From contig OZ251525.1 in assembly GCA_965243075.1 (NCBI GenBank), positions 2,144,348 through 2,208,347 of the forward strand: DNA of 64,000 nt, written 5' to 3'. Each line of letters begins with the position of its first letter. The stretch's first letter is position 1. The stretch comes from Tepidiformaceae bacterium. Lineage in GTDB: Bacteria > Chloroflexota > Dehalococcoidia > Tepidiformales > Tepidiformaceae. Shown in pieces: positions 2,918-49,647 of this stretch. Position numbers and translations under genes: made by a program. The notes under the pieces are model-generated. The model had not been told where the DNA came from, did not search any database, and worked only from the letters and a program-made list of their open reading frames with translations.

Positions 2918-4151
2918 AGGATATCTCGCCGGTGGCGTAGCGGTTGCGCCCGGGGACGTCGCCCGTGGCGATGCGGTCGAAGCTGGGGCCGCTCAGGCCG
3001 AGGAAGCCGAAGCCGCCGCCGCTCACCGATTCGCGGCTGTAGCGGCGCTCCATGACGGCCCACCATTCGGCGTCGGAGGGAGCGCCGGGCACGCGCGCGG
3101 GGTCGGGCCGCGCGGCCAGCCGCGTGAGCGCGTTCGTGCCCTTCATGAAGCAGAACACGCAGTTGCCCGCGTTCTCGGGGATGTCGAGGTCGAAGTCGCG
3201 TTCGCGCCAGAAGGTCTCGACGGCGGCCTTGTCGAAGCCCCACTCCTCAAGGGGGAAGTAGGGGCGCTCGCCGGGGGGCTGGGTGCGGATGGAGCAGGCG
3301 CGCCCGCCCGCGCCCTCGGCGAGGAAGGAGCGCATGGCGATGCGGTCGATGCGCCTCGGCTCGTCGGCGCGCAGGCCGAGCAGGGCCACATAGCCGGCGG
3401 CGTCCGGTCCCCACAGGGGCGCGGGGCCGGGCGGGCCCGGCGGGCGCGGCGGCGGGGGCGCGTCGGTGTAGTCGCGCCAGCGCTGCGCTGCGCGGGAGGG
3501 AGGCCGCGCGGTCATGGCGGCGGCGCGGCGCAGGTAGGCGCCTTCCTCCTGGACGCCGCCGCGACGACGGTGAGCCTCCAGCGCCTGCTCCGGCCCGACG
3601 AAGGAGCGGTCCGCGTGGTGGCCGGCGTGACGCGGCCCCTCGCCCGTGCCGAACCATTCGGCGAGCAGGTCGTGGGCGGGGTAGAGCTTGAGCTTGGCGG
3701 TGCAGCTGCGCGTGTGGGGGTTGGGCAGCATCCCGTTCCAGGAGAGCATCTCCTCAAAGGCCTCGCCGCGGGAGCGGTAGCCGAGCGGGTCGTCCTCGAC
3801 GGGGTCGGCGCGCACCAGCCGGTAGGAGGCCTGGCGCACGTACATGCCACGCGAGGCGTCCTCGACGGTGCAGAACTCGTACCAGAGGACGGGCAGGCCG
3901 AAGTCGCGTTCGAGGCGGCGCTTGCATTCGCGGGCGAAGGCGTAGGTGCCGGGGTGTTCGGCGGTGGTGTTGGCGAAGAGGACGACGTCGCCGCGTTCGG
4001 GGCGCAGCAGGCCGGCTTCGGCGAGCAGGAAGGTCATGGCCGCCGAGGAGCGTCCGCCGGAGAACCTGACGACACGGGGAAGGGCCTCGTGCTCCCGATC
4101 ACGCCAGGCGATGCGCTTCATGCGCCGGTTCGGCCCGATGGGAGCGCGCAT
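2901..4151 (-). CDS. PP-loop ATP pyrophosphatase, PAPS-reductase/DndC/IbrA-like adenine-nucleotide alpha-hydrolase
   Basis: VRFSGGRSS is a variant of the SGGxDS PP-loop. RSCTAKLKL and GNCVFCFMKG motifs are typical of PAPS-reductase-family proteins. There is an internal Pro-rich insert, PPPPRPPGPPGPAP. This is the first gene of the operon. Confidence 0.75.
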   Translation of the reverse strand: MRAPIGPNRRMKRIAWRDREHEALPRVVRFSGGRSSAAMTFLLAEAGLLRPERGDVVLFANTTAEHPGTYAFARECKRRLERDFGLPVLWYEFCTVEDASRGMYVRQASYRLVRADPVEDDPLGYRSRGEAFEEMLSWNGMLPNPHTRSCTAKLKLYPAHDLLAEWFGTGEGPRHAGHHADRSFVGPEQALEAHRRRGGVQEEGAYLRRAAAMTARPPSRAAQRWRDYTDAPPPPRPPGPPGPAPLWGPDAAGYVALLGLRADEPRRIDRIAMRSFLAEGAGGRACSIRTQPPGERPYFPLEEWGFDKAAVETFWRERDFDLDIPENAGNCVFCFMKGTNALTRLAARPDPARVPGAPSDAEWWAVMERRYSRESVSGGGFGFLGLSGPSFDRIATGDVPGRNRYATGEISCDCTD

Positions 4152-17120: not shown

Positions 17121-18800
17121 CTACCGAGGCCGCTTGTCCCACTCGCTGATCGCCCACATCCGCGCGCGCTCCAGGTGCGGGCGCTTGTCCTCGCCCGGCC
17201 ACACCAGCCCCTTCAGCGCGCGGTCATCCCGCAGCTGGATCATCGTCAGGCGGTTGCCCTTCACGCCGTTGCACTTCCGGCAGGCGATACCGAGGTTGTA
17301 GAGGTTATCGTCTCCGCCTTCCTCACCATCGTCGGGCCGCTTCGCAAACAGGTGCTCGACTTCGAGCATGTCGGGGTCGGGTTCGCCGTTGGGAAGCTTC
17401 GGCTGCCAGTTACAGCCCCAGCACAAGCAGCCGAACCGAGCCAGCAGCATCTCCTTGCATTCATCCTTCGGGATGTTGCCGTTCCAGCGCGGATCGCGAC
17501 GTTGTCTTTCGGACACCTCGGGGCCGGACAGCACCTGCTCGCGCGGCTCCACGTCGTTCGGGCCGATCACCCGCCACGGCTTGACATCCAGCCCTTCGTC
17601 CCAGTTGAGCCGGGGATTGCCAAACGCGACGGCGGTGGCCGAGGTCGTGGATGCGGTACCGCCATCAAGCAGACAGCGCAGCCCCTCGTTCTGGTAGAAG
17701 CGCCGCTTGATCATCGTGAGCGAGCGGTACGACCAGTCACAGGCGATCCACTGACGCGGTTCGTGAGCGGGCATCCATCCCTCAGCAGCGACAGCCGTGG
17801 TGGCACAGCCCGCGAAGATGTCGAGCACCACGTCGCCGGGGTTGGAAGAGGCCTCGATGATGCGCCGGTACAGGGCCAACGGCTTCTGCGTCGCGTAGCC
17901 CGTGCGCTCGCGGGCCTGGCTGTTGATGATATTGATGTCGTTCCACGTATCGTGGAGTGGCGTTCCCTGTTCATCATCGCTCCGGTCCACGATCCTGTCG
18001 TAGTCGCCGCCCGCGATCACCGCAGCGGCCTTTTCCCGATCATAGATAATCAACTGCCGCACGCCACCGGGCTTGTTGACCTGGTATCCTTTTCCAATCT
18101 TCCGGCGCTTGTCTTCAGAAAGACTATAGAGCCTGTTGAAAACGTAGTCGTCCGTCTTGGAGTAGAACAGGAGCACATCATGGTTGCGCTGAAAATGGCC
18201 CGCCGTGTTACTCCACTTGCCGTAGTGCCACACGATTTCATTGCGGAAGTTCCCCGCACCAAAGATCGCGTCCAGAAGCATCCGCAGGTGCGAATTGGCC
18301 TTATCGTCGCAGTGGACGTAGATGCTGCCCGTGTCCTTCAGCACGCGATGGCACTCCACCAGCCGCTGCGCCATGAAACAGATGTACGCCGCCATGCCAT
18401 GGCCAGCCGTGGCGATCACGGCCTCGATCACGGAGTGGATGCGCTTCGGCAGACTCCCGTCTTCCGCATTCTCGATCTCGCGGTAGAAGGCCGCATGGCT
18501 CCCCTTCTCGCTGATGTCCTTGTTCCACTCCCACAAATCGCCAACCTGCGTGTACAGGCCATACTCCGGGAACTCGTCCCTCGGCCTGCCCGTGTGGGCC
18601 ATGAACAGCTCGATCTCCTCGCCCAACTCGGCCTCGGTGATGGCGGGCTTGGGGTTGCTGCGGAGGTTCTCCATCTTGCCGAACGGGGGATCGATGGCGA
18701 TGAGGTCGATACAGGCGTCGTCAAGCGAGAGCAGGAAACGCAGGTTGTCCATAAGCGCCAGCGTGCGGTTGGGGAAGTTGGGCTCGGACGAATCGGACAC
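17121..18800 (-). CDS. beta-class amino (N6A/N4C) DNA methyltransferase fused to a C-terminal HNH nuclease domain
   Basis: Motif IV IAIDPPFG comes first, then SIYVHCDD, and motif I VLDIFAGCATTAVAA later (beta order). The C-terminus CWGCNW...LEVEHLF...NLYNLGIACRKCNGVKGN is an HNH with CxxC pairs. Two hand-counted 60-nt lines gave 47-53% G+C. Confidence 0.85.
   Translation of the reverse strand: MSDSSEPNFPNRTLALMDNLRFLLSLDDACIDLIAIDPPFGKMENLRSNPKPAITEAELGEEIELFMAHTGRPRDEFPEYGLYTQVGDLWEWNKDISEKGSHAAFYREIENAEDGSLPKRIHSVIEAVIATAGHGMAAYICFMAQRLVECHRVLKDTGSIYVHCDDKANSHLRMLLDAIFGAGNFRNEIVWHYGKWSNTAGHFQRNHDVLLFYSKTDDYVFNRLYSLSEDKRRKIGKGYQVNKPGGVRQLIIYDREKAAAVIAGGDYDRIVDRSDDEQGTPLHDTWNDINIINSQARERTGYATQKPLALYRRIIEASSNPGDVVLDIFAGCATTAVAAEGWMPAHEPRQWIACDWSYRSLTMIKRRFYQNEGLRCLLDGGTASTTSATAVAFGNPRLNWDEGLDVKPWRVIGPNDVEPREQVLSGPEVSERQRRDPRWNGNIPKDECKEMLLARFGCLCWGCNWQPKLPNGEPDPDMLEVEHLFAKRPDDGEEGGDDNLYNLGIACRKCNGVKGNRLTMIQLRDDRALKGLVWPGEDKRPHLERARMWAISEWDKRPR

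Positions 18801-31269: not shown

Positions 31270-31270
<1 letters not shown>
30746..31270 (-). CDS. DinB-family (four-helix bundle) protein
   Basis: [14 protein letters not shown] and EHDREHW histidine motifs. ATGA overlaps at both ends. Confidence 0.7.
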
Positions 31271-32919
<1,649 letters not shown>

Positions 32920-32996
32920 GGGCCTTACTCCGCCGTGCGTCATACGCGGCCCGCCGCCGCGCCCCATCGGGACGCACGACCGAATCCGCGCGGGGC

Positions 32997-41630: not shown

Positions 41631-43064
41631 TCATGGCTCCCGTCGCGCCGACGCCGCGATCTGGTCGAAGATCGCACGCAGGTCCGCAGCAGCTGGTCCA
41701 TCGCCCGGCACGCGCTTGACGAGGGGCGGCCCACCGCTCCGTCGCAGGCAGAGGCTCGAACCGGGGAGCGTCGTATCGGTCAGGCAGTAGCTGATACCCG
41801 AGATATCGTCATACGACATGTAGCGAAACACGATTCCCCGCGCATCGGCGGGAATGTCAAGGAGCAGATCGCGGAGGCCGCTGATCGAAAGCTGGTACGT
41901 CCGCCCACCGTCCAACGACGTCCCCGGCTCCACGACTGGTACGCCGCAGGTGGGGATGAGCAGTCGCGCCAGGTCGTTCCGCGCCACATGCCGCACGGGC
42001 TCCGGGACGCAGCCCGTCAGGGCGTTCCGGTCCAGCGCGAGCCTCGCGAGGGCCGACAGGTCCGCCAGTTCCGGCGGGACCGAGCCGGTGAGACCCCGCG
42101 AACGGAGCGCCAGTTCCGTCACGCGCCGGGGCGTGCCGGAGACGGTCACGCCATCCCATTGGGTAACGGGAACGCCCGCGCTCCAGTTCAGCGAACCGCC
42201 GTCGCCCGCCAGCGCGTCGCGCGCGGCCAGCAGCGTCGCGCAGTCCGCCGCCAGCGCCGCATCCGCGCAGGACGGCGGCGGGGGCGGCGTCAACGCGATC
42301 ATGGCGTCGCCGTAGCGGTAACGCCCCGTGACGCTCAAGCCGTCGTCAAGCGGCAACGGAATGGTCCCCAGTTCCCGCCAGGAACCGCCTTCGGGGCGCG
42401 CCGAAAGGTGGATGCGCCGCCCGTCGCGCACGTCCTGCCAGACGCGCACCTCGACGGGCGTCGCCCATCGCAATTCGGCGACCGGCGCGGGCGCGATACG
42501 CGTGGCGCTGGAGATGCGATCAAGGAACGCATTGACGGCGTCTTCGGTCTCCGCGTCCGTTGTCTGCATCCGTCGCTTCGTCTCCCCGCCGGTACGCGCA
42601 TCGTAGTAGACGTGGGAACCAGTCTTTGTGTCTCCGACAATGAACGCTTGCACCTTGTAATTCCCGCCCTCGACCACCGTAAACCATGACAGATTCCTGT
42701 CCGCGGGAACCCTGATGAGAAGCGGGGCGTCATACTGGCTACGGGAGTAGTAGTCATCGAGAAAATAGTATCCTTCCCCAAGCCTGTAGCCCCTGTTGGC
42801 CGCAACGGGCGCGGCTCCGAGCGTGATGTCCCCATAGCGGTAACGCCCCGCATTGCTGAGACCGTCGAGCCATAGCGGGACCGTCCCCAGCTGCGCCCAG
42901 GAGCCGCCCTCGGGGCGCGCCGAGAGCCAGAGGCGCCGTTCGTCGCGCACATCCTGCCAGACGCGCAGCTCCACCTTCAGCTTCGGCGGCGCTTCCGCGG
43001 CGGCGTCGGCCGCGACGGAGACGGCCAGCGCGACGAGAAGAAGCGCGACGACGGCGTTCTTCAC
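41631..43064 (-). CDS. secreted protein with an internal ~55-aa repeat, LRR segment and shared C-terminal domain
   Basis: Signal peptide MKNAVVALLLVALAVSVAADA. The motif RVWQDVRD.RR..LSARPEGGSW..LGT.PL occurs twice. LRR-like LTGSVPPELADLSALARLALDRNALTGCVP is present. GTG start. Confidence 0.65.
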   Translation of the reverse strand: MKNAVVALLLVALAVSVAADAAAEAPPKLKVELRVWQDVRDERRLWLSARPEGGSWAQLGTVPLWLDGLSNAGRYRYGDITLGAAPVAANRGYRLGEGYYFLDDYYSRSQYDAPLLIRVPADRNLSWFTVVEGGNYKVQAFIVGDTKTGSHVYYDARTGGETKRRMQTTDAETEDAVNAFLDRISSATRIAPAPVAELRWATPVEVRVWQDVRDGRRIHLSARPEGGSWRELGTIPLPLDDGLSVTGRYRYGDAMIALTPPPPPSCADAALAADCATLLAARDALAGDGGSLNWSAGVPVTQWDGVTVSGTPRRVTELALRSRGLTGSVPPELADLSALARLALDRNALTGCVPEPVRHVARNDLARLLIPTCGVPVVEPGTSLDGGRTYQLSISGLRDLLLDIPADARGIVFRYMSYDDISGISYCLTDTTLPGSSLCLRRSGGPPLVKRVPGDGPAAADLRAIFDQIAASARREP

Positions 43065-43122: not shown

Positions 43123-44526
43123 ATGGCGGATGGCGCGGATTCGGCGGCGGCGCACGCGGCGGCGCGGCGCGAGCGGGCGGCGGCGCGCTGGGGATTGACG
43201 CGCGGCGCCGTGCTCGTGCCCGCCGGGCTGCCCCCGCCCATCGCGGGCACGGACCAGTTCCACGAGTTCCACGCCCATCCCGAACACCGCTACCTGGCGG
43301 GCACGGCGCTGGCCGGCTCGGTGCTCGCCTACGACCCGGGCGAGGGCTGGACGCTGTTCGCGCCCGTGCCCGACGCGGAGACGCGCGTGTGGACCGGCGA
43401 CGGCCCCCCGCTGGCGGCGCTGGCGCGCGAATCGGGGCTGGAGCGCGTGGCCCCCGCGTCCGCGCTGGGCGGCTGGCTCGAACGGCGGCGCGGCGAGCCC
43501 CTCGCCCTCATCGGCAACGACGACATCGCGGAGCGCGCGGCGGAGTACGGCGTCGGCTCGTGGCGCGCGCTGGAGCCCGTCGTCGACGCGGAGGCGGGCG
43601 CGCGCCTGAGCGCGGTCGTGGCGGATCTTCGGCGGGCGAAGGACGCGCGCGAGCTGGCGCTCATGCGGGAGGCGGCGGCGGCCACCCACCGCGGACACAT
43701 GGCGGGGCTGCGCAAGGCGCGCGCGGGCATGTCGGAGCGCGCCCTGCAGGTCGAGATCGAGGTCGAATTCTTCCGCGCGGGGGCGGCGCGCACGGCCTAC
43801 GGCACGATCGTGGGGGGCGGCCCGAACGCGGCCACGCTGCACTTCTCGCCCACCGCGCGCCCCTTCGCCGAGGGCGAGCTGATCCTCGTGGACGCGGGCG
43901 CGGAGGTGGGCGGCTACGCCAGCGACGTGACGCGCACCTACCCCGCGGGCGCGCGCTTCACGGGCATCCAGCGCGACCTCTACGCGCTCGTGCTGGCCGT
44001 GCAGGAGCGCGCCATCGCGGGAGCGCGGCCGGGCGTCGAATACCGCGACCTGCACCTCGCCGCCAGCCTCGACGTGGCGCGCGGGCTGGCCGACCTCGGC
44101 CTGCTGCGGGGGACGTCGCAGGCGCTCGTGGAGCGCGACGCGCAGGCGCTCTTCTTCCCCCACGGGCTGGGGCACCTGCTGGGGCTGGCCACGCACGACG
44201 CGGGCGGCTGCCTCGCCGGGCGCGAGCCGGACGGGCGCCCCACGCTGCGTTACCTGCGCGCCGACCTGCCCCTGCGGCCGGGCTACGTGGTCACCATCGA
44301 GCCCGGCGTCTACTTCATTCGCGCGCTGCTGGAGGATCCCGCCCTGCGCGAGCGCCACCGCGAGGCCGTGGACTGGGAGCGCGTGGACGGGATGCTCGAT
44401 TTCGGCGGCATCCGCATTGAGGACGACGTGCTGGTGACCGCGGACGGCGCGCATTCGCTGTCGGCGGCCACGCCCAAGGCGCTGGACGCGATCGAGGAGA
44501 TACGGCGCGAGGCGCTGGAGGCGTGA
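43123..44526 (+). CDS. Xaa-Pro aminopeptidase (M24B)
   Basis: LVDAGAEVGGYASDVTRT, HGLGHLLGLATHD and TIEPGVY metal-ligand motifs. Confidence 0.85.
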   Translation: MADGADSAAAHAAARRERAAARWGLTRGAVLVPAGLPPPIAGTDQFHEFHAHPEHRYLAGTALAGSVLAYDPGEGWTLFAPVPDAETRVWTGDGPPLAALARESGLERVAPASALGGWLERRRGEPLALIGNDDIAERAAEYGVGSWRALEPVVDAEAGARLSAVVADLRRAKDARELALMREAAAATHRGHMAGLRKARAGMSERALQVEIEVEFFRAGAARTAYGTIVGGGPNAATLHFSPTARPFAEGELILVDAGAEVGGYASDVTRTYPAGARFTGIQRDLYALVLAVQERAIAGARPGVEYRDLHLAASLDVARGLADLGLLRGTSQALVERDAQALFFPHGLGHLLGLATHDAGGCLAGREPDGRPTLRYLRADLPLRPGYVVTIEPGVYFIRALLEDPALRERHREAVDWERVDGMLDFGGIRIEDDVLVTADGAHSLSAATPKALDAIEEIRREALEA

Positions 44527-46649
44527 GCGAGCCGCTCACCATCGAACGCGTCGCGCGCTACCCGCGCCCGGGGCTGGGCGGCCCCACGCGCTGGGCCTTC
44601 ACGCCCGACGGACGCGGCGTCGTCTGTCTCGCCAGCGAGGACGGCGGGCTGGTGCGGAGCCTGCGACTGTACGACGTGGCGGGCGGCGCGTGGCGCACGC
44701 TGGCCGGTCCGGCGGCGGCGCACGGCGAACCCCCGTCGCGCGAGGAGGAGCTGCGCCGCGAGCGCGCCCGCCAGCGCGACCTCGGCGTGACCGACTACCG
44801 CTTCGCGCGCGCGGCCCCCGAACGCGCCATCCTGCTGCCCGGCGGCGAGGTTCCGCGCCTCGTCGCCGGCGACGCCGAAGCGGTGGCCGTGCGCGGCGCG
44901 GAGGGCGCCATCACGCCGCGCCCGAGCGAGGACGGCGCCCGCGTGGCCTTCGCGCGCGACGGCGAGCTGTACGTCGTGGACGCGCGGGGCGGCGCGGCGC
45001 GACGGCTCACGCACGGCGCGGAGGACGGCCTCACGCACGGCCTCGCCGACTTCATCGCGCAGGAGGAGTTCGACCAGTCGGACGGCTTCTGGTGGTCGCC
45101 CGATGGCGCGCGCCTCGCCTTCCTGCGCGTCGATGCGCGCCACGTGCCCCCCTTCCCCATCGTCCACCAGGGCCGCGCCGACGTGGAAACGGAGCACCAC
45201 CGCTACCCCTTCGCGGGCCAGGCCAACGCGCATGTGCGGCTGGGCGTGGTTCCCGTGGACGGCGGCGAGCCGGTGTGGATGGACCTCGGGCCGGAGGAGG
45301 ACGACCAGTACCTGCCGCGCGTGTGCTGGCGGCGCGACGGCCTGCTCGCGGGCCTCGTGCTCAGCCGCGACCAGACGCGCCTCTCCCTGCGCCTCTTCGA
45401 CCCCCAAACGGGCGCGGTCACGCGCGCGCTGGAGGAGCGCGGCGAACCCTGGCTCAACGTCGGCGACTTCCGCTTCCTCGATACGGGCGAGCTGCTGTGG
45501 TCGAGCGAGCGCGACGGCTTCCGCCACCTCTACCTCTACGACGCGGAGTTGGCGCGGGCGCGCGCGCTCACGTCCGGCGGCTGGGCGGTCACGCGCATCG
45601 TGGAGGTGGACGAGGGCGGGCGCGCGGCCTTCTTCACGGCCACGCGCGAGGGCGCCACCGAGCGCCACCTCTACCGCGTGGGGCTGGACGGCGGCCCCGT
45701 CGAGCGCCTCACGCACGCGCCCGGCGTCCACGCCTGCGCCGTCGCCCCCGACGGGAGCGCCTTCATCGACACCGTCTCCTCGCGCGGACGCGCGCCCATG
45801 ACCACGCTGCGCCGCGCGCGCGACGGCGCGGCCATCGCCATGCTCCACGAGCAGCCGCAAGGGGAGGCGAGCGCCGACGCGCTGGGCCTGCGCCCGCCCG
45901 AACCGCGTACGGTGGCGGCGGCGGACGGCGCGCCCCTCGACGCCGCCCTCTACCGGCCCGACGGCGCGCCCCCCTGGCCCCTCGTCGTCTCCGTCTACGG
46001 CGGGCCGCACGCCCAGCGCGTGCTCGACGACTGGGCGCTCACCGTGGACCTGCGCGCCCAGTACCTGGCGCAGCGCGGCTACGCCGTGCTGGCGGTGGAC
46101 AACCGCGGCGCGGCCAACCGCGGCCTCGCCTTCGAGGCCCACCTCCACCGCCGCATGGGCACGGTCGAAATCGACGACCAGGCGGCGGCGGTCGAGCAAC
46201 TGGCCGCCGAGGGCCTCATCGACCGCGAGCGCGTCGGCGTCTACGGCTGGAGCTACGGCGGCTACCTGACCTGCATGGCGCTCATGCGCCGCCCCGACCT
46301 CTTCCGCGCGGGCGTGGCGGGCGCGCCCGTGGCCGACTGGGACGGCTACGACACGGGCTACACCGAGCGCTATATGGGGACGCCCGCGGACAACCCCGAC
46401 GGCTACCGCGAGGGCGCGCTCGCGACGCACGCGGCCAGCCTGCGCGGCAAGCTGCTGCTGGTGCACGGGCTGGTGGACGAGAACGTGCATTTCCGGCACA
46501 CGGCGCGGCTCATCGAGGCGCTCACGGCGGCGGGCCGCGACTACGGCCTGCTGCTCTTCCCGGAGGAGCGGCACATGCCGCGCGCCGCCGCCGGGCTGGA
46601 GTACCTGGAGCGCCGCCTCGTCGCTTGGTTCGACGAGCACCTGGCGTAG
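44523..46649 (+). CDS. S9 family dipeptidyl-peptidase IV / prolyl oligopeptidase-like serine peptidase
   Basis: Beta-propeller N-terminus (FIAQEEFDQSDGFWWSPDG), with GWSYGGY (nucleophile Ser) and LLVHGLVDENVHF in the C-terminal domain. GTG start overlaps the upstream stop. Confidence 0.85.
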   Translation: MSEPLTIERVARYPRPGLGGPTRWAFTPDGRGVVCLASEDGGLVRSLRLYDVAGGAWRTLAGPAAAHGEPPSREEELRRERARQRDLGVTDYRFARAAPERAILLPGGEVPRLVAGDAEAVAVRGAEGAITPRPSEDGARVAFARDGELYVVDARGGAARRLTHGAEDGLTHGLADFIAQEEFDQSDGFWWSPDGARLAFLRVDARHVPPFPIVHQGRADVETEHHRYPFAGQANAHVRLGVVPVDGGEPVWMDLGPEEDDQYLPRVCWRRDGLLAGLVLSRDQTRLSLRLFDPQTGAVTRALEERGEPWLNVGDFRFLDTGELLWSSERDGFRHLYLYDAELARARALTSGGWAVTRIVEVDEGGRAAFFTATREGATERHLYRVGLDGGPVERLTHAPGVHACAVAPDGSAFIDTVSSRGRAPMTTLRRARDGAAIAMLHEQPQGEASADALGLRPPEPRTVAAADGAPLDAALYRPDGAPPWPLVVSVYGGPHAQRVLDDWALTVDLRAQYLAQRGYAVLAVDNRGAANRGLAFEAHLHRRMGTVEIDDQAAAVEQLAAEGLIDRERVGVYGWSYGGYLTCMALMRRPDLFRAGVAGAPVADWDGYDTGYTERYMGTPADNPDGYREGALATHAASLRGKLLLVHGLVDENVHFRHTARLIEALTAAGRDYGLLLFPEERHMPRAAAGLEYLERRLVAWFDEHLA

Positions 46650-46748
46650 GGGTTGCGAACGCCCGTGCCGCCGATGCGGTAGGGTGACCGCCCGATGGAG
46701 CAGATCATCGCTGAACTGCGTATCGAAGGCATCCGGCAGTAGATATGG

Positions 46749-48137
46749 TTACCCTACCGCAAAATGTTTTGGTAGATACGTAACTCGACCCCACACACTA
46801 ACTTTCAGTCCATCTCGGATCATCGCTTCCTCCATTTGTTTTCGCGCACCCCTTTCCCACTTGATATTCAGTTCTTCCGGGCTAATGCCAGCCACCGCGT
46901 TTGTGAAATTTCGAGAAAAATCTCCATCAGTTTCAAGCCGAGATAAAGTTTCCATGAATCGATATTTTGGTGCAATAACCCAAGTTGTGAATCGCGTAGT
47001 ATTCTCATTCATCAAATACAGCAGGTCCGAAGTAAACAGCCAGAACCCAATGAGTGCTTGCATTGTCTCAGCGTCGCCAAAGTATCGCATTGCGAAATCA
47101 TCAGTTTGCTGGTTAATAATTCTCGCCGCAATGTGTGCATTATTGTGCACAATATAAGGGTGGTAGAAACTATCAAATTGTGTGAAATCAACCCTCTGAT
47201 TTCCTCCGATGCTAACTGGGGTATGGAGCAATTGCTTTACAGCTCCCCAGTTCTCATTCTCAAGTGCATACGCTCCCCACACCACCCACGTACGGAGTGC
47301 CAACATTGGGCCGTAACTAGCAACTATATTCTGAGACTTTTCTGGAAGTCTGTAAGCCTTAGACAGAGCACGCATCAGATCGGGAATGGCACTATCTTGG
47401 TTATTCTCGATCACTTTAAATCCCAGATCATCAATGGGATTCCACGGAGAAAGAAAGGATGGCTGAATGGAAAGGACGGCTTCTTCTCGAGATAGATCTG
47501 CAGATTTCTCACCGAAAATTATAGACTGTTCCGGAATAATGCGATTGATCCACTGCTTTTCACAGTTTTCAATGGCGCGTCGTATTTCGTGCTTCATTTC
47601 CCTCAATGTCTTGGGAAATTCAACTCTCCGATAGTCGAAATAAGGTTCCGGTGGTCGATCTTTGACGATCTGAGTGAGTTGATCCGTGAGGTTAGGCAAA
47701 TCGTTCAAGCTATAGGATATATGCCGAATATGCCGGGAATCAAACGGAATGCTTTTCGTATCCTGAGTCACGAGGATAACATTCTCCTTAACGGTATGAG
47801 CGATCCCCACTTCGTAATAGACGTTCATGTTCTCCTTGCCTTCACTATCAGGGGACATGTCCGCCACAATAATTTCAGCCTCGGCAATACCTTTCAGAAT
47901 GCCTTCCATCACGGCACCGGAATGGAATTCCTTAGGCTGGTCGGCACGAACCGCTTCGTACCCTGCGGCTTCAATTGCCGCCTCAATCGCTTCGTAGACA
48001 GGGTCGAACTCCGGCGCGAAGGGCATGAGGATAAACCCGCTGTGGCGGGGCGGGACGGGCGAGCCCTGAAAGAAGAAGTGCTTCGGGTAGATGGAGCGCG
48101 CCTCGGTGGGATCAGTCACCCCCGCAGGGTAGCACAT
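46749..48137 (-). CDS. TIR-like / nucleoside 2-deoxyribosyltransferase-like N-terminal domain fused to a large unknown helical C-terminal domain
   Basis: GFILMPFAPEFDPVYEAIEAAIEAAGYEAVRADQ...IAEAEIIVADMS...NMNVYYEVGIAHTVKENVILV is a Rossmannoid pattern with a candidate catalytic Glu. Only the last 462 codons of ORF 46749..48815 look real. The start is uncertain (ATG 48137 or GTG 48119). Two hand-counted 60-nt lines gave 38-40% G+C, against 67% in the adjacent gene. Confidence 0.7.
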   Translation of the reverse strand: MCYPAGVTDPTEARSIYPKHFFFQGSPVPPRHSGFILMPFAPEFDPVYEAIEAAIEAAGYEAVRADQPKEFHSGAVMEGILKGIAEAEIIVADMSPDSEGKENMNVYYEVGIAHTVKENVILVTQDTKSIPFDSRHIRHISYSLNDLPNLTDQLTQIVKDRPPEPYFDYRRVEFPKTLREMKHEIRRAIENCEKQWINRIIPEQSIIFGEKSADLSREEAVLSIQPSFLSPWNPIDDLGFKVIENNQDSAIPDLMRALSKAYRLPEKSQNIVASYGPMLALRTWVVWGAYALENENWGAVKQLLHTPVSIGGNQRVDFTQFDSFYHPYIVHNNAHIAARIINQQTDDFAMRYFGDAETMQALIGFWLFTSDLLYLMNENTTRFTTWVIAPKYRFMETLSRLETDGDFSRNFTNAVAGISPEELNIKWERGARKQMEEAMIRDGLKVSVWGRVTYLPKHFAVG

Positions 48138-48173
48138 GCGGCGGATGTGCGCGCGCGGTTGCCTGCGACGGGC

Positions 48174-48179
48174 TAGAAT
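48174..48179 (+). promoter_or_regulatory. putative -10 box TAGAAT upstream of 48250
   Basis: TAGAAT lies in the divergent intergenic region. A GAAGGAG SD precedes ATG 48250. Confidence 0.35.
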
Positions 48180-48249
48180 CGGGGTGCATGGTGCGAGGGC
48201 GCGGGGCTTCATGGGCCGCTCACGCGCTCCGACGCGAAGGAGTGTCCCC

Positions 48250-48813: not shown

Positions 48814-49647
48814 ATGACCTACGCCCGACCGGAGCTGCTGGCCGAACCCGACTGGCTCGCCGACCACCTCGACGACCCCGCCGTGCGCGTCATCGACTGC
48901 GCGGCGCTGGAGGCCTACCGTCGCGCCCACATCCCCGGGGCCGTGCGCCAGCCCGCGCACACCTACGTCAAGGAGGCGGGCGCGCGCGAGGGCGGCGCGG
49001 GCACGTTCGTGATGCCGCCGGACGAGTTCGCGGCGCTCATGGGCGGGCTGGGCGTGGACGCCGATACGACGGTGGTGGCCTACGACGACAACAACGGGCT
49101 GGTGGCGGCGCGCCTGTGGTGGGCGCTGGCCTACTACGGGCACGAGCGCGCGAAGGTGCTGAACGGGGGCTGGCACCGCTGGCTCACGGAGGGGCGGCCC
49201 GTCACCTTCCACGCCACGCGGGCGGAGCCGCGCGCGTTCGAGGCGCGCCCCGTGCCCGCGCGCCATGCGAGCGCGGACGACCTGCTGGCGGAGCACGGGT
49301 CGGCGTCGTGCGCGGTGCTGGACGTGCGCAGCGACGGCGAGTGGGACGGCACGAACGCGCGCGGCAACCGGCGCGTGGGGCACGTGCCGGGCGCGCGCCA
49401 CCTGGAGTGGACGCGGCTGGTGGAGCAGGCGGACACGCGCCGCTTCCTGCCCGCGGCGGAGATGCGGGCGCTGCTGGACGAGGCGGGCGTGACGGCGGGG
49501 GCGCGCGTCATCACCTACTGCCAGGGGGGCATCCGCGCGGCGCACACGGCCTTCGCGCTGGCGCTGCTGGGCCACGACGACGTGCGCGTCTACGACGGCT
49601 CCATGTACGAGTGGGCGAACCGCGACGACACGCCGCTGGAGGTCTAG
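48814..49647 (+). CDS. thiosulfate/3-mercaptopyruvate sulfurtransferase (tandem rhodanese)
   Basis: Two rhodanese modules. Active-site loop is ITYCQGGIRAAHT. Confidence 0.85.
   Translation: MTYARPELLAEPDWLADHLDDPAVRVIDCAALEAYRRAHIPGAVRQPAHTYVKEAGAREGGAGTFVMPPDEFAALMGGLGVDADTTVVAYDDNNGLVAARLWWALAYYGHERAKVLNGGWHRWLTEGRPVTFHATRAEPRAFEARPVPARHASADDLLAEHGSASCAVLDVRSDGEWDGTNARGNRRVGHVPGARHLEWTRLVEQADTRRFLPAAEMRALLDEAGVTAGARVITYCQGGIRAAHTAFALALLGHDDVRVYDGSMYEWANRDDTPLEV

Follow-up and report, generated by a model that had tools for sequence, protein, structure and literature searches.

The AT-rich gene described here probably encodes a stand-alone conflict protein of two modules, most likely a single-protein anti-phage system of the abortive-infection type. 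It lies in a 64-kb window (the whole stretch of 64,000 nucleotides analyzed) of a ~73% G+C Tepidiforma-like Dehalococcoidia genome. An N-terminal domain related to nucleoside 2-deoxyribosyltransferases (NDTs) and DNPH1 would act as the effector, and a variable helical C-terminal domain would act as its sensor or regulator; the defense function, the substrate, and the activation mechanism are proposed from the lines of evidence given below.

An intact ORF of 462 codons plus a stop codon occupies positions 46749-48137 of the minus strand (ORF list and sequence), as the preliminary description of this DNA had stated, although the boundary of 46690 given there lies 59 nt past the stop codon. The motif quoted in that description is found verbatim in the translation (GFILMPFAPEFDPVYEAIEAAIEAAGYEAVRADQ...IIVADMS...NMNVYYEVGIAHTVKENVILV). 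The features of the region are as follows.

46675..46761, minus strand: 15-bp inverted repeat whose predicted hairpin spans the stop codon and the 3' UTR (repeat search, RNA folding)
46749..48137, minus strand: the gene; stop codon at 46749-46751, ATG start at 48137
46752..47606, minus strand: all-helical C-terminal domain, aa 178-462 (~285 aa), putative sensor/regulatory module
47607..47657, minus strand: inter-domain linker, aa 161-177 (pLDDT about 61-64; residues 169-174 below 50)
47658..48047, minus strand: N-terminal α/β domain, aa 31-160, NDT/DNPH1-like and TIR-related, putative N-glycosidase effector
47811..47813, minus strand: GAA codon of Glu109 in NVYYEVG, candidate catalytic residue, invariant in A1 and A3
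47930..47950, minus strand: intragenic breakpoint, where identity to the L082 allele changes from 90-96% to 50-70% and G+C from ~64% to ~45%
48048..48116, minus strand: N-terminal leader, aa 8-30, DPTEARSIYPKHFFFQGSPVPPR, conserved and within the GC-rich 5' segment common to the alleles
48119, minus strand: alternative in-frame GTG start, giving 456 codons
48138..48249, no strand assigned: divergent intergenic region, presumed promoter (from the sequence), 78-91% identical to L082
48250-48723, plus strand: conserved 157-aa flank gene, the upstream neighbor, divergent from the AT-rich gene

The 24 full-length homologues can be aligned over their whole length, and for their starts (M-x-EPRxIYPKHF) the GTG at 48119 is a closer match than the ATG (48137) from which the gene had been read. 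In the leader, Arg14, Pro18, and Lys19 are invariant and Ile16, Tyr17, and His20 are at least 90% conserved; this segment is modeled with low confidence by AF2 and shares 90-96% nucleotide identity with L082. The upstream 157-aa gene is part of the conserved flank of one chromosomal slot only (slot A, see below). A sigma-70-like promoter was not found in 48138..48249, where such a scan is uninformative for this phylum, and the combined promoter and terminator scan was likewise uninformative.

The G+C content is 47.7% for the whole gene, 44.6% for its 3' two-thirds, and 64.7% for its 5' 150 nt, and the minimum 1-kb window has 44.0%, compared with 72.7 ± 3.7% in the remainder of the 64 kb (z = -7.8), where no other 1-kb window falls below 60%. 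The GC3 value of the gene is 0.50, versus 0.96-0.98 in the four adjacent genes, and within the gene it is 0.77 in codons 1-60 and 0.43 from codon 161 to the end. FYMINK residues make up 29% of the gene product versus 10% of the adjacent peptidase. The AT-rich island that had been noted is thus real, and two 60-nt lines with 37% and 40% G+C match the earlier count, but the island averages ~45-48% rather than 40%, and the peptidase gene measures 76% rather than 67%. The GC-richer 5' end also stands, and the chimeric origin suggested for it agrees with a sharp recombination breakpoint near 47940 relative to a related genome.

The AF2 model of the N-terminal domain takes the shape of a five-strand α/β fold. 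The top Foldseek matches in the PDB are NDTs (2a0k, 8qc0, 6qai, and 7o62) and DNPH1, which cover this domain only, with target-normalized TM-scores of 0.5-0.72 and E values that are all ≥ 8.8e-3; TIR-STING and the SPARTA TIR are further fold matches, and those in BFVD are again NDTs. The sequence of the protein itself stays below the curated thresholds: 20.3 bits over the full length and 23.1 bits for the domain alone against PF05014 (gathering threshold, 28.8), 20.9 and 23.2 bits against TIR_2 (PF13676; cutoff, 28), a sub-threshold best PADLOC match (E = 0.0047), and a weak match to CAP12-TIR. Pfam gave no SIR2 match in the protein, and a search of PDB sequences with the full-length profile gave no match at E ≤ 10. 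The kinship of the domain is nevertheless visible among its relatives. PF05014 is matched by 14 of the 21 N-module members (best E = 5.4e-8) and 7 of the 24 family members, whereas TIR_2 is matched by 2 in each set; precomputed annotation assigns PF05014 to the N-module relatives P0030, P0034, and P0037. A broadened N-domain profile reaches Rcl/DNPH1 among PDB sequences at E = 3.4e-4, and N-module relatives match PDLC00733, the model for "TIR" effectors in PADLOC, with values from 1e-9 to 3e-12. The N-module is found at either end of unrelated partner domains, and its relatives occur on plasmids and on prophage or viral contigs. Together, the profile and fold matches support assignment of this domain as a divergent member of the TIR-related NDT/DNPH1 fold; the fold group named in the preliminary description (TIR/NDT-like) is confirmed, with NDT/DNPH1 appearing nearer than TIR.

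As anticipated there from the YYEVG motif, the invariant Glu109 falls, in the HMM alignment to Rcl/DNPH1 chains, on the Glu of their GVGYELG segment. In DNPH1, the Glu of GYELG is catalytic and equivalent to the SARM1 TIR Glu (bioRxiv 10.64898/2026.09.21.753143), and the catalytic nucleophile of NDTs is a Glu at the start of the helix following the central strand, E98 in LlNDT (bioRxiv 10.1101/2023.08.16.553469; bioRxiv 10.64898/2026.09.21.753143). The equivalence of Glu109 to SARM1 E642 runs via the DNPH1 Glu rather than a direct TIR-structure alignment. With DNPH1/Rcl and the NDTs of PF05014, the domain shares the α/β fold, the catalytic Glu, and the strand-loop-helix motif hhhhA(D/E)-x6-V-x-YE-x-G. 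However, D80 of human DNPH1, the second catalytic or ribose-binding Asp and the protonating one (bioRxiv 10.64898/2026.09.21.753143), falls on the invariant Ile80 in the HMM alignment; the invariant Glu78 is two residues upstream, and a two-residue register shift is possible. Because an invariant Ile takes the position of the protonating Asp in this alignment, the chemistry and the substrate are uncertain. The window protein further differs from DNPH1 and NDTs in its sub-threshold score, in MPF after strand 1 instead of a Gly/Ser phosphate loop, in its fusion to a large extra domain, and in being encoded by a hypervariable, sporadic gene and not a housekeeping one. The TIR NADase effectors (Thoeris ThsB, SPARTA TIR-APAZ, TIR-STING, and CBASS/Pycsar) have a flavodoxin-like fold related to that of the domain and a Glu that probably corresponds to Glu109, and they are without the DNPH1 protonating Asp, as the window family would be by the HMM alignment. 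On the other hand, the profiles favor NDT over TIR in the window family, and no Thoeris, CBASS, or pAgo partner genes were found near its copies.

The C-terminal domain is modeled with high confidence (pLDDT 89, pTM 0.90) and contains invariant Trp residues and the motif LALRTWxxWGAxAL..NW.AV..LLH. No match was found in Pfam, NCBIfam, or PDB sequences; fold searches of the PDB with the full and the C-domain models gave designed helical repeat proteins at best (E = 0.16, TM ≤ 0.33), and a BFVD search with the full model gave nothing for this domain, in agreement with the earlier remark that this helical part resembles nothing known. Its profile matches just 41 proteins among the 1.84 billion (1.84e9) searched, and nothing in metagenome_contigs or IMG/VR. 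The partners of the domain are NDT-like domains, SIR2_2 (P0071), Schlafen AlbA_2 (P0061), and a PDC-M28B-like N terminus (P0060). P0071 was found by the profile at E = 5.6e-5 in that search and by hhalign against A2 (probability 96.5%, E = 7e-10, 188 columns, 18% identity), and hhalign with the Schlafen-fused relative gave a probability of 97.2%; both links are based on single representative proteins from short contigs, and the relatives with SIR2 or Schlafen fusions, like the distant ones fused to NDT, lie on contigs too short to inform on context. A further candidate relative, P0068 (BTRD1 plus M23 peptidase), was rejected as a repeat artifact because its four short matches fall on one 28-column stretch. 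The profile comparisons and the model suggest a previously undescribed helical domain that links NDT-like, SIR2, and Schlafen fusions.

The SIR2-fused P0071 matches the HMM of PDC-S65 at E = 1e-67. PDC-S65 is a single-gene SIR2-type candidate in PADLOC whose defense function is a prediction by guilt-by-embedding (bioRxiv 10.1101/2024.01.29.577857). Its overall build is that of the window protein: in a stand-alone protein of ~465 aa, a nucleotide-glycosidase-type effector of ~130-150 aa forms the N terminus and is followed by a helical C-terminal domain, which is remotely homologous to that of the window gene by the hhalign comparison above. The effector is SIR2_2 in PDC-S65 and NDT-like in the window protein, and the representative P0071 is from a ~32% G+C organism. 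The PDC-S65 HMMs (PDLC05060/05061) gave no match for the full protein at E ≤ 10, nor for 15 isolated C-terminal domains; since the C-terminal domains of the family miss these models, PADLOC would not call the window gene.

An NDT-like domain serves as a toxic, proven phage-defense effector in Retron-Eco1 (Ec86), where it is reported to hydrolyze NAD(P)+ or to deplete adenine derivatives (PMC12673091; bioRxiv 10.1101/2023.08.16.553469). That system differs in its dependence on a reverse transcriptase plus msDNA, which serve as sensor and antitoxin, in forming filaments, and in an unrelated second lobe; no retron effector was matched in the PDB profile search with the N-terminal domain. CapRel-SJ46, DSR1/DSR2, and Avs are single-protein sensor-effector defenses in which the toxic domain is conserved and the recognition domain diversifies fast. 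By description, they resemble the window protein in carrying both domains on one polypeptide, with the variability in the sensor part, whereas the window domains are unrelated to theirs in sequence and without an NTPase/STAND module, and the window gene owes its diversity to ancient lineages of alleles in fixed slots of the chromosome.

The full-length family comprises ~24 proteins, is seemingly confined to Chloroflexota with GC-rich genomes, and has a sporadic distribution, with members in 2 of the 185,579 species genomes searched. One of ~9 distinct contexts surveyed is a mobile/defense island (L085), in which the neighbors are HEPN_AbiV, UvrD, a transposase, and a recombinase; most of the others are housekeeping surroundings, and several copies sit among metabolic genes (shikimate operon; fumarase/mutase). 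A methylase-HNH gene is inserted alongside at slot C and an IS element at slot B. The neighbors differ between slots, and there is therefore no conserved operon; conserved metabolic operons around the homologues, named in the preliminary description as contrary evidence, were not seen. Nor is there a partner gene conserved across slots: the small downstream genes of slots A, B, and C, which are convergent, were considered and rejected, being unrelated to one another.

At three fixed chromosomal slots, flanks that are 90-100% identical enclose alleles that are only 40-70% identical, and the divergence begins and ends at the 3' end of the gene and inside its conserved 5' region. One slot is also shared across genomes with flanks only ~80-85% identical. 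Compared with L082, dS is 0.16 over the first 85 codons and the remainder is saturated (pS = 0.75); more generally, dS is saturated within the gene and 0.04-0.09 in the flanks. The C-terminal domain is more variable than the N-terminal domain (mean pairwise identity, 41% versus 63%), and the two are reassorted in domain mosaics: L086 and L088 are 69% identical in the N-terminal and 95% in the C-terminal domain, with a breakpoint at around aa 140 of L086, close to where the N-domain passes into the linker, and P0010 and P0018 are 96% and 42% identical, respectively. Deep comparisons give dN/dS ratios of 0.17-0.34, and the closest (97%) allele, in L081, gives 0.19, which indicates a functional gene under purifying selection. 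All ~24 homologues have an intact ORF and share dozens of invariant residues, and the disrupted frame that had been mentioned as a possible objection is not observed among them. In situ positive selection was rejected as the source of the allele divergence, since saturation is seen at synonymous sites of the gene but not in its flanks.

We favor a defense function because the N-terminal domain is of an effector type (Rcl/DNPH1 match, aligned Glu, PDLC00733 matches in relatives, and the precedent of the Retron-Eco1 effector), because modules are swapped on both sides (partners of the N-module and of the C-terminal domain), because the alleles follow an immune-gene-like pattern of divergence and mosaicism between near-identical flanks, because the gene is under purifying selection, because its contexts show no conserved partner, one copy in a mobile/defense island, and insertions beside slots B and C, and because its distribution is sporadic. 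This reading is weakened because the protein is below every curated threshold, because its C-terminal domains miss the models of PDC-S65, which is itself a candidate, because most copies are among housekeeping genes outside recognizable defense islands, because the slots always carry the same family, unlike classical defense hotspots with varied systems, because an invariant Ile aligns with the protonating Asp of DNPH1, and because the SIR2 and Schlafen links depend on single proteins from short contigs. The earlier idea of a single-gene system with sensor and effector thus gains from the domain swaps and the hypervariable mosaic alleles, while the defense role itself is inferred. In the mechanism that we propose, the variable helical domain would recognize an infection cue and switch on the NDT/DNPH1-like N-glycosidase domain, probably by relief of autoinhibition or by oligomerization. 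NDT-fold enzymes act as dimers. Through Glu109, the domain would then split an essential nucleotide, either NAD(P)+ or a (deoxy)nucleotide, at its N-glycosidic bond, and this loss would starve phage and cell alike. In the Tepidiforma-like lineage, the locus would be a long-resident, highly polymorphic one rather than a recent import, with ancient alleles and domain mosaics traded through homologous recombination, for which the conserved flanks and the conserved 5' end of the gene would serve as anchors.

A more far-reaching version, to which we assign a rather low probability, is immune polymorphism resembling that of MHC or R genes, in which deep alleles at fixed slots reshuffle their halves, the C-terminal domain is a new fold within a wider sensor superfamily, and the AT-richness stems from the polymorphism. 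One receptor-effector protein would have been kept in its slots for a very long time, with recombination anchored in the conserved 5' segment, and NDT-like, SIR2, and Schlafen effectors would be interchangeable partners of its C-terminal superfamily. GC-biased gene conversion would no longer reach alleles that have diverged too far for recombination, and these would drift toward an AT-biased mutational equilibrium, so that persistent AT-richness (GC3 of ~0.5 in a genome of GC3 ~0.97) need not be a sign of foreign origin.

A protein of the same build may instead be directed against plasmids or mobile elements, or may serve allorecognition or kin discrimination under balancing selection. Ancient, balanced-looking alleles of one and the same family at fixed slots recall self/non-self loci as much as defense hotspots, and most copies have no defense-island context; however, no secretion signal, immunity partner, or delivery apparatus was found near the gene, and the related architectures (PDC-S65 and the PDLC00733-matching N-modules) come from catalogues of phage-defense candidates, and a non-phage target seems unlikely. 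It is quite improbable that the gene is a recent foreign acquisition, i.e., unameliorated low-GC cargo between housekeeping genes without a particular host role. The preliminary description had read the composition as a foreign-DNA signature, and the contrast in GC3 and FYMINK content, the sharp edges of the single-gene island, and the mobile-element contexts of N-module relatives agree with that reading. Although the composition is alien, a recent import is not supported: the homologues have AT-rich genes in all of the hosts examined, the searches turned up no low-GC donor, and full-length relatives are known only from GC-rich Chloroflexota and are absent from the phage, plasmid, IMG/VR, and JGI collections. 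Moreover, the same slots hold the family in genomes with flanks that have drifted apart to ~80% identity, alleles of one slot are saturated in dS under purifying selection, and the edges of the gene show no flanking direct repeats, integrase, or adjacent tRNA.

Still less probable is a housekeeping or stress enzyme, namely, a DNPH1/NDT-like hydrolase or transferase for nucleotide sanitation or salvage, in which the helical domain would be regulatory. DNPH1/Rcl and NDT enzymes as the closest sequence matches to the catalytic domain, and the metabolic surroundings of several copies, are in keeping with such an enzyme, but it fits poorly with the changing neighbors, the sporadic distribution, the divergence of alleles between near-identical flanks, the apparent replacement of the second catalytic Asp of DNPH1, and a codon usage far from that of the host genes. 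That codon usage, together with a promoter scan in which nothing recognizable was found, might also suggest a decaying or silent remnant whose ORF is unexpressed; we consider this extremely improbable given the intact homologues with their invariant residues, the dN/dS values, and the confident structure models of both domains.

If confirmed, the preferred reading of an anti-phage protein would add a single-protein defense family that current tools miss (without a Pfam or NCBIfam match and with a sub-threshold PADLOC score) and a second immune-effector use of the NDT/DNPH1-like fold beyond Retron-Eco1. The shared helical domain could provide an experimental handle on what the NDT-like, SIR2 (PDC-S65), and Schlafen fusions sense. 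Old alleles and domain mosaics inside near-identical genomes of an uncultured phylum make a clean natural example, and the locus is a test case for lasting AT-richness in GC-rich genomes, whether as a result of selection for silencing, of foreign ancestry, or of escaping biased gene conversion.

The inverted repeat at the 3' end is missing from the other alleles. An integron attC-like reading of it was rejected, as it has neither core-site motifs nor an integrase and is not shared by those alleles. The segment 46675..46761 is predicted to fold with -40.1 kcal/mol (z = -3.3), and the outer arm of the repeat coincides with position 46682, where the homology to the L082 flank resumes.

The methylmalonyl-CoA mutase encoded in the window shares 90-91% identity with 'Dehalococcoidia bacterium' MAG proteins and 77-79% identity with Tepidiforma, which places the host among the uncultured Tepidiforma-like Chloroflexota. 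The G+C content of the window is approximately 72-74%, and the gene under study (the family gene) lies in the following arrangement:

44523-46649 (+): S9/DPP-IV peptidase gene on one flank, 76% G+C
46749-48137 (-): family gene, an intact ORF of 462 codons
48250-48723 (+): conserved 157-aa gene on the other flank; the rhodanese gene comes next

The family gene as a whole has a G+C content of 47.7%; the first 150 nt reach 64.7%, and the 3' two-thirds have 44.6%. At 44.0%, the lowest 1-kb window is 7.8 sd under the rest of the window, and a sliding scan of the window revealed no other 1-kb stretch below 60%. GC3 is 0.50 versus 0.96-0.98 in the neighboring genes, and FYMINK residues account for 29% of the family protein versus 10% of the neighboring peptidase. 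The preliminary description had set the island at about 40% G+C and the flank at 67%, both of which are too low (the island mean is approximately 45-48%, and the flanks are approximately 72-76%), and its end coordinate of 46690 lies 59 nt beyond the stop codon. Homologues start with M-x-EPRxIYPKHF, which the in-frame GTG at 48119 fits slightly better than the ATG at 48137.

An AlphaFold2 model of the full protein, built with a 24-sequence alignment, is confident (pLDDT 84) and comprises the following parts:

aa ~8-30: leader, poorly modelled but highly conserved, with R14, P18, and K19 invariant
aa 31-160: alpha/beta domain with five strands (N-domain)
between the two domains: short linker
aa 178-442: all-helical C-domain (alone, pLDDT 89 and pTM 0.90)

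All Pfam scores of the N-domain are below threshold, i.e., 20.9 bits for TIR_2 (cutoff 28), 20.3 bits for Nuc_deoxyrib_tr (cutoff 28.8), and E = 0.19 for CAP12-PCTIR_TIR. PADLOC gave a single weak 'TIR effector' match to the window protein (E = 0.0047) and NCBIfam gave none; the family is undescribed, with no above-threshold match in the available family libraries. PF05014 is matched by 7 of the 24 full-length family proteins and TIR_2 by 2, and the corresponding counts among the N-modules, the N-terminal NDT-like domains also met in other proteins, are 14 and 2 of 21 (best E-value 5.4e-8). Foldseek matches are restricted to the N-domain and include nucleoside 2-deoxyribosyltransferases, DNPH1, TIR-STING, and SPARTA TIR-APAZ, all with E >= 8.8e-3, and a BFVD fold search of the model retrieved viral NDTs.

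The N-module profile matches Rcl/DNPH1 chains (E = 3.4e-4 to 6e-3) and the T. brucei NDT (E = 0.04), and in the profile alignment NpNVfYEvGiaH of the family falls on SLGVGYELGRAV of Rcl/DNPH1. The Glu of this DNPH1 motif is its catalytic glutamate and has the same position as the catalytic Glu of the SARM1 TIR (bioRxiv 10.64898/2026.09.21.753143); the NDT counterpart is E98 of LlNDT (bioRxiv 10.1101/2023.08.16.553469). The N-terminal motif read in the preliminary description is present verbatim in the family protein, and E109 in its YYEVG is a well-founded candidate catalytic residue because it is invariant across the family and aligned with the DNPH1 catalytic Glu. In the HMM alignment, the protonating Asp of DNPH1 (D80) falls on an invariant Ile (I80), with an invariant E78 two residues upstream, and in that respect the family appears more TIR-like than DNPH1-like.

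The C-domain matched nothing in Pfam, NCBIfam, or PDB sequences, and nothing meaningful among PDB folds (best E = 0.16, designed helical repeats, TM <= 0.33). When 1.84 billion representative proteins were searched exhaustively with a HMMER profile of the domain, only 41 matched at E <= 1e-3, 17 of them at <= 1e-30. Homology of the C-domain with two distant relatives, P0071 (probability 96.5%, E = 7e-10) and P0061 (97.2%, E = 2.8e-11), is confirmed by hhalign. The related proteins differ in their N-terminal part:

P0064, P0065, P0067, P0076-P0078: the same NDT-like N-module; a second subfamily of ~500 aa with distant C-domain matches
P0071 (465 aa): SIR2_2; matches the PADLOC candidate PDC-S65 over near full length, E = 1e-67
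P0061 (475 aa): Schlafen AlbA_2; distant C-domain match
P0060: resembles PDC-M28B; distant C-domain match
several short proteins: little or no N-terminal part, mostly C-domain alone

The putative sensor domain connects effectors of three types, one of which belongs to an existing PADLOC candidate. 'Guilt-by-embedding' predicted the PDC systems, a set of 145 candidates that are untested (bioRxiv 10.1101/2024.01.29.577857), and none of the papers searched mentions PDC-S65. The window family C-domains have no direct match to the PDC-S65 HMMs; therefore, the window gene falls outside PDC-S65 and would escape current tools.

The N-module (consensus MPF...PVYEAI...RADD...VVAD-x6-NVFYExGIAHT...PFD) is found N- or C-terminally on many unrelated partners across phyla. 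On plasmids it is surrounded by replication, partition, integrase, IS, and toxin-antitoxin-like genes, and relatives also occur on viral or prophage contigs and match the PADLOC 'Effector / TIR' model PDLC00733 at 1e-9 to 3e-12. Each half of the family protein is a swappable module. The N-module proteins (L003-L080, L094-L096, L097-L176; P0026-P0044) form a broad unnamed family of ~270-470 aa in many phyla, in most cases carry the annotation 'hypothetical protein', and may represent additional conflict proteins that await characterisation; a recurrent ~280-aa form has a conserved uncharacterised N-terminal half (P0026, P0028, P0029, P0032).

Approximately 24 full-length homologues, all unnamed, were found among 5.8 billion clustered proteins. 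Only 2 of 185,579 species-representative genomes carry one (both Chloroflexota, one a Tepidiformaceae MAG), and searches of phage and plasmid records, IMG/VR, and the JGI metagenome collection gave none. Three fixed chromosomal slots hold the copies, and a further one is located in a mobile island:

slot A: rhodanese and 157-aa gene / S9 peptidase (window, L081, L082/L083)
slot B: fumarase / 128-aa gene and methylmalonyl-CoA mutase (L001, L086, L088, L090, L091)
slot C: chorismate synthase / shikimate dehydrogenase (L084, L089)
mobile/defence island: UvrD, HEPN_AbiV, DDE transposase, HTH-NYN, serine recombinase (L085)

A neighborhood comparison found no conserved partner gene beside the copies. 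Extra variable DNA adjoins the family gene in L089 (a methylase-HNH gene) and L090 (an IS1595 element and small genes). In L082, a close relative with 95% identical flanks, an extra 148-aa gene (3123-3569, -) with a lipoprotein-like signal (MSRIVFTLLLVVLASAVACGGG...) lies between the family gene and the peptidase, in the region of window ~46682-46749. The window has no such gene; the slot A variable segment is therefore not always a single gene. The window mutase (31270-32967, -) has 58% aa identity to the slot-B mutase, with neither fumarase nor family gene alongside; thus, slot B synteny is absent from this stretch of the genome.

In every slot, nucleotide identity is 90-100% in the flanks and 40-70% in the gene (97-100% versus 40-65% for L084 and L089 in slot C). 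Identity drops at the gene end on the 3' side and inside the conserved first ~60 codons on the 5' side. Between the window and L082, 90-96% identity extends from the flank through the first ~60 codons, falls at ~47940, exactly at the G+C drop, and homology returns at 46682. Over the first 85 codons dS is 0.16, and for the flanking genes it is 0.04-0.09, whereas synonymous sites in the rest of the gene are saturated (pS = 0.75; dS = 1.3-1.8 in slots B and C). This identifies the alleles as old lineages swapped by recombination, and the saturation rules out rapid in-situ change as the source of their divergence. Mosaics are frequent, such as L086 versus L088 (N-domain 69%, C-domain 95%) and P0010 versus P0018 (96% and 42%); identities of the two domains correlate weakly (r = 0.38), and the C-domain is more variable (mean identity 41% versus 63%). 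The dN/dS is 0.19 in the closest pair and 0.17-0.34 in deep pairs; the gene is under purifying selection. Slot B is filled in genomes whose flanks are only ~80-85% identical, which indicates long residence in the lineage.

An inverted repeat at window 46675-46761 (15-bp arms, 93% complementary, 57-nt spacer) extends across the stop codon and covers the point where flank homology to L082 restarts. It folds as a stable hairpin (-40.1 kcal/mol, z = -3.3), is absent from 8/8 other alleles checked (L081 left out), and may act as a terminator or be left over from a recombination junction.

In all hosts examined, all alleles are AT-rich relative to their neighbors (GC3 0.49-0.72 versus 0.89-0.98), and GC3 falls along the gene to a minimum in the variable C-domain. 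The population pattern is unusual in that old alleles recombine at fixed slots and the extreme AT-richness persists. The gene may stay AT-rich because it circulates in a mobile pool that is itself AT-rich, because divergent alleles escape GC-biased gene conversion, or because of selection, either for silencing or for a slower translation of a toxic enzyme. The host of P0071 has ~32% G+C, and the wider superfamily therefore spans hosts of very different composition.

On the best-supported reading, which we consider fairly probable, the gene encodes a conflict protein that works alone and combines sensor and effector, most likely as an anti-phage system of the abortive-infection type. In this scheme, a cue from infection would be sensed by the variable C-domain, which would switch on the NDT/DNPH1-like and TIR-related N-glycosidase at the N-terminus; this enzyme would then deplete NAD(P)+, or a different nucleotide, by means of Glu109. 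The single-gene logic of a nucleotide-degrading effector with a variable sensor is familiar. In Retron-Eco1, the NDT-like domain is a validated defence effector, described either as an N-glycosidase hydrolysing NAD(P)+ (PMC12673091) or as one depleting adenine derivatives (bioRxiv 10.1101/2023.08.16.553469). The analysis shows the domain assignment, the modularity, the pattern of alleles, and the selective constraint, and we infer the defence role, substrate, and activation mode by analogy with Retron-Eco1, TIR, and SIR2 effectors and from the SIR2/Schlafen swaps. The locus offers testable hypotheses for defence biology and GC-content evolution.

A protein of this build that targets other mobile elements or serves allorecognition is unlikely. 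Recent foreign cargo is less probable again: the AT-richness in every host and the old recombining alleles argue against simple recent import from a low-GC donor, and no such donor of the full-length architecture was found. A housekeeping nucleotide enzyme is highly improbable, and a silent remnant is scarcely credible.

Other features of the window are as follows:

17121-18800 (-): 559-aa ORF with 46% identity (tblastn E = 1e-136) to a gene for an N6_N4 methyltransferase-HNH fusion, directly adjoining the family gene in L089 (slot C)
41631-43064 (-): 477-aa ORF, internally duplicated and LRR-like in its C-terminal part
49173-49257 (+): 85-nt tRNA-Gly(tcc) called by ARAGORN inside the rhodanese ORF (48814-49647)

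The 559-aa ORF lies in a second, milder low-GC patch (17-19 kb, 63-65% G+C); it, too, may be a gene of defence or of a mobile element. The 477-aa ORF, in a patch at 41-42.9 kb (local G+C 59-64%), has no Pfam match at E <= 1e-3 and is 38-40% identical to an LRR protein near slot C in L084. The tRNA-Gly(tcc) is probably a spurious call within GC-rich coding sequence. Three other tRNAs, all intergenic (Gly-gcc 57125, Leu-caa 58949, Gln-ttg 59066), are located near another lower-GC patch at 57-58 kb, and further patches of reduced G+C (64-68%) are found at 4-6 kb, 34-36 kb, and 38-40 kb.
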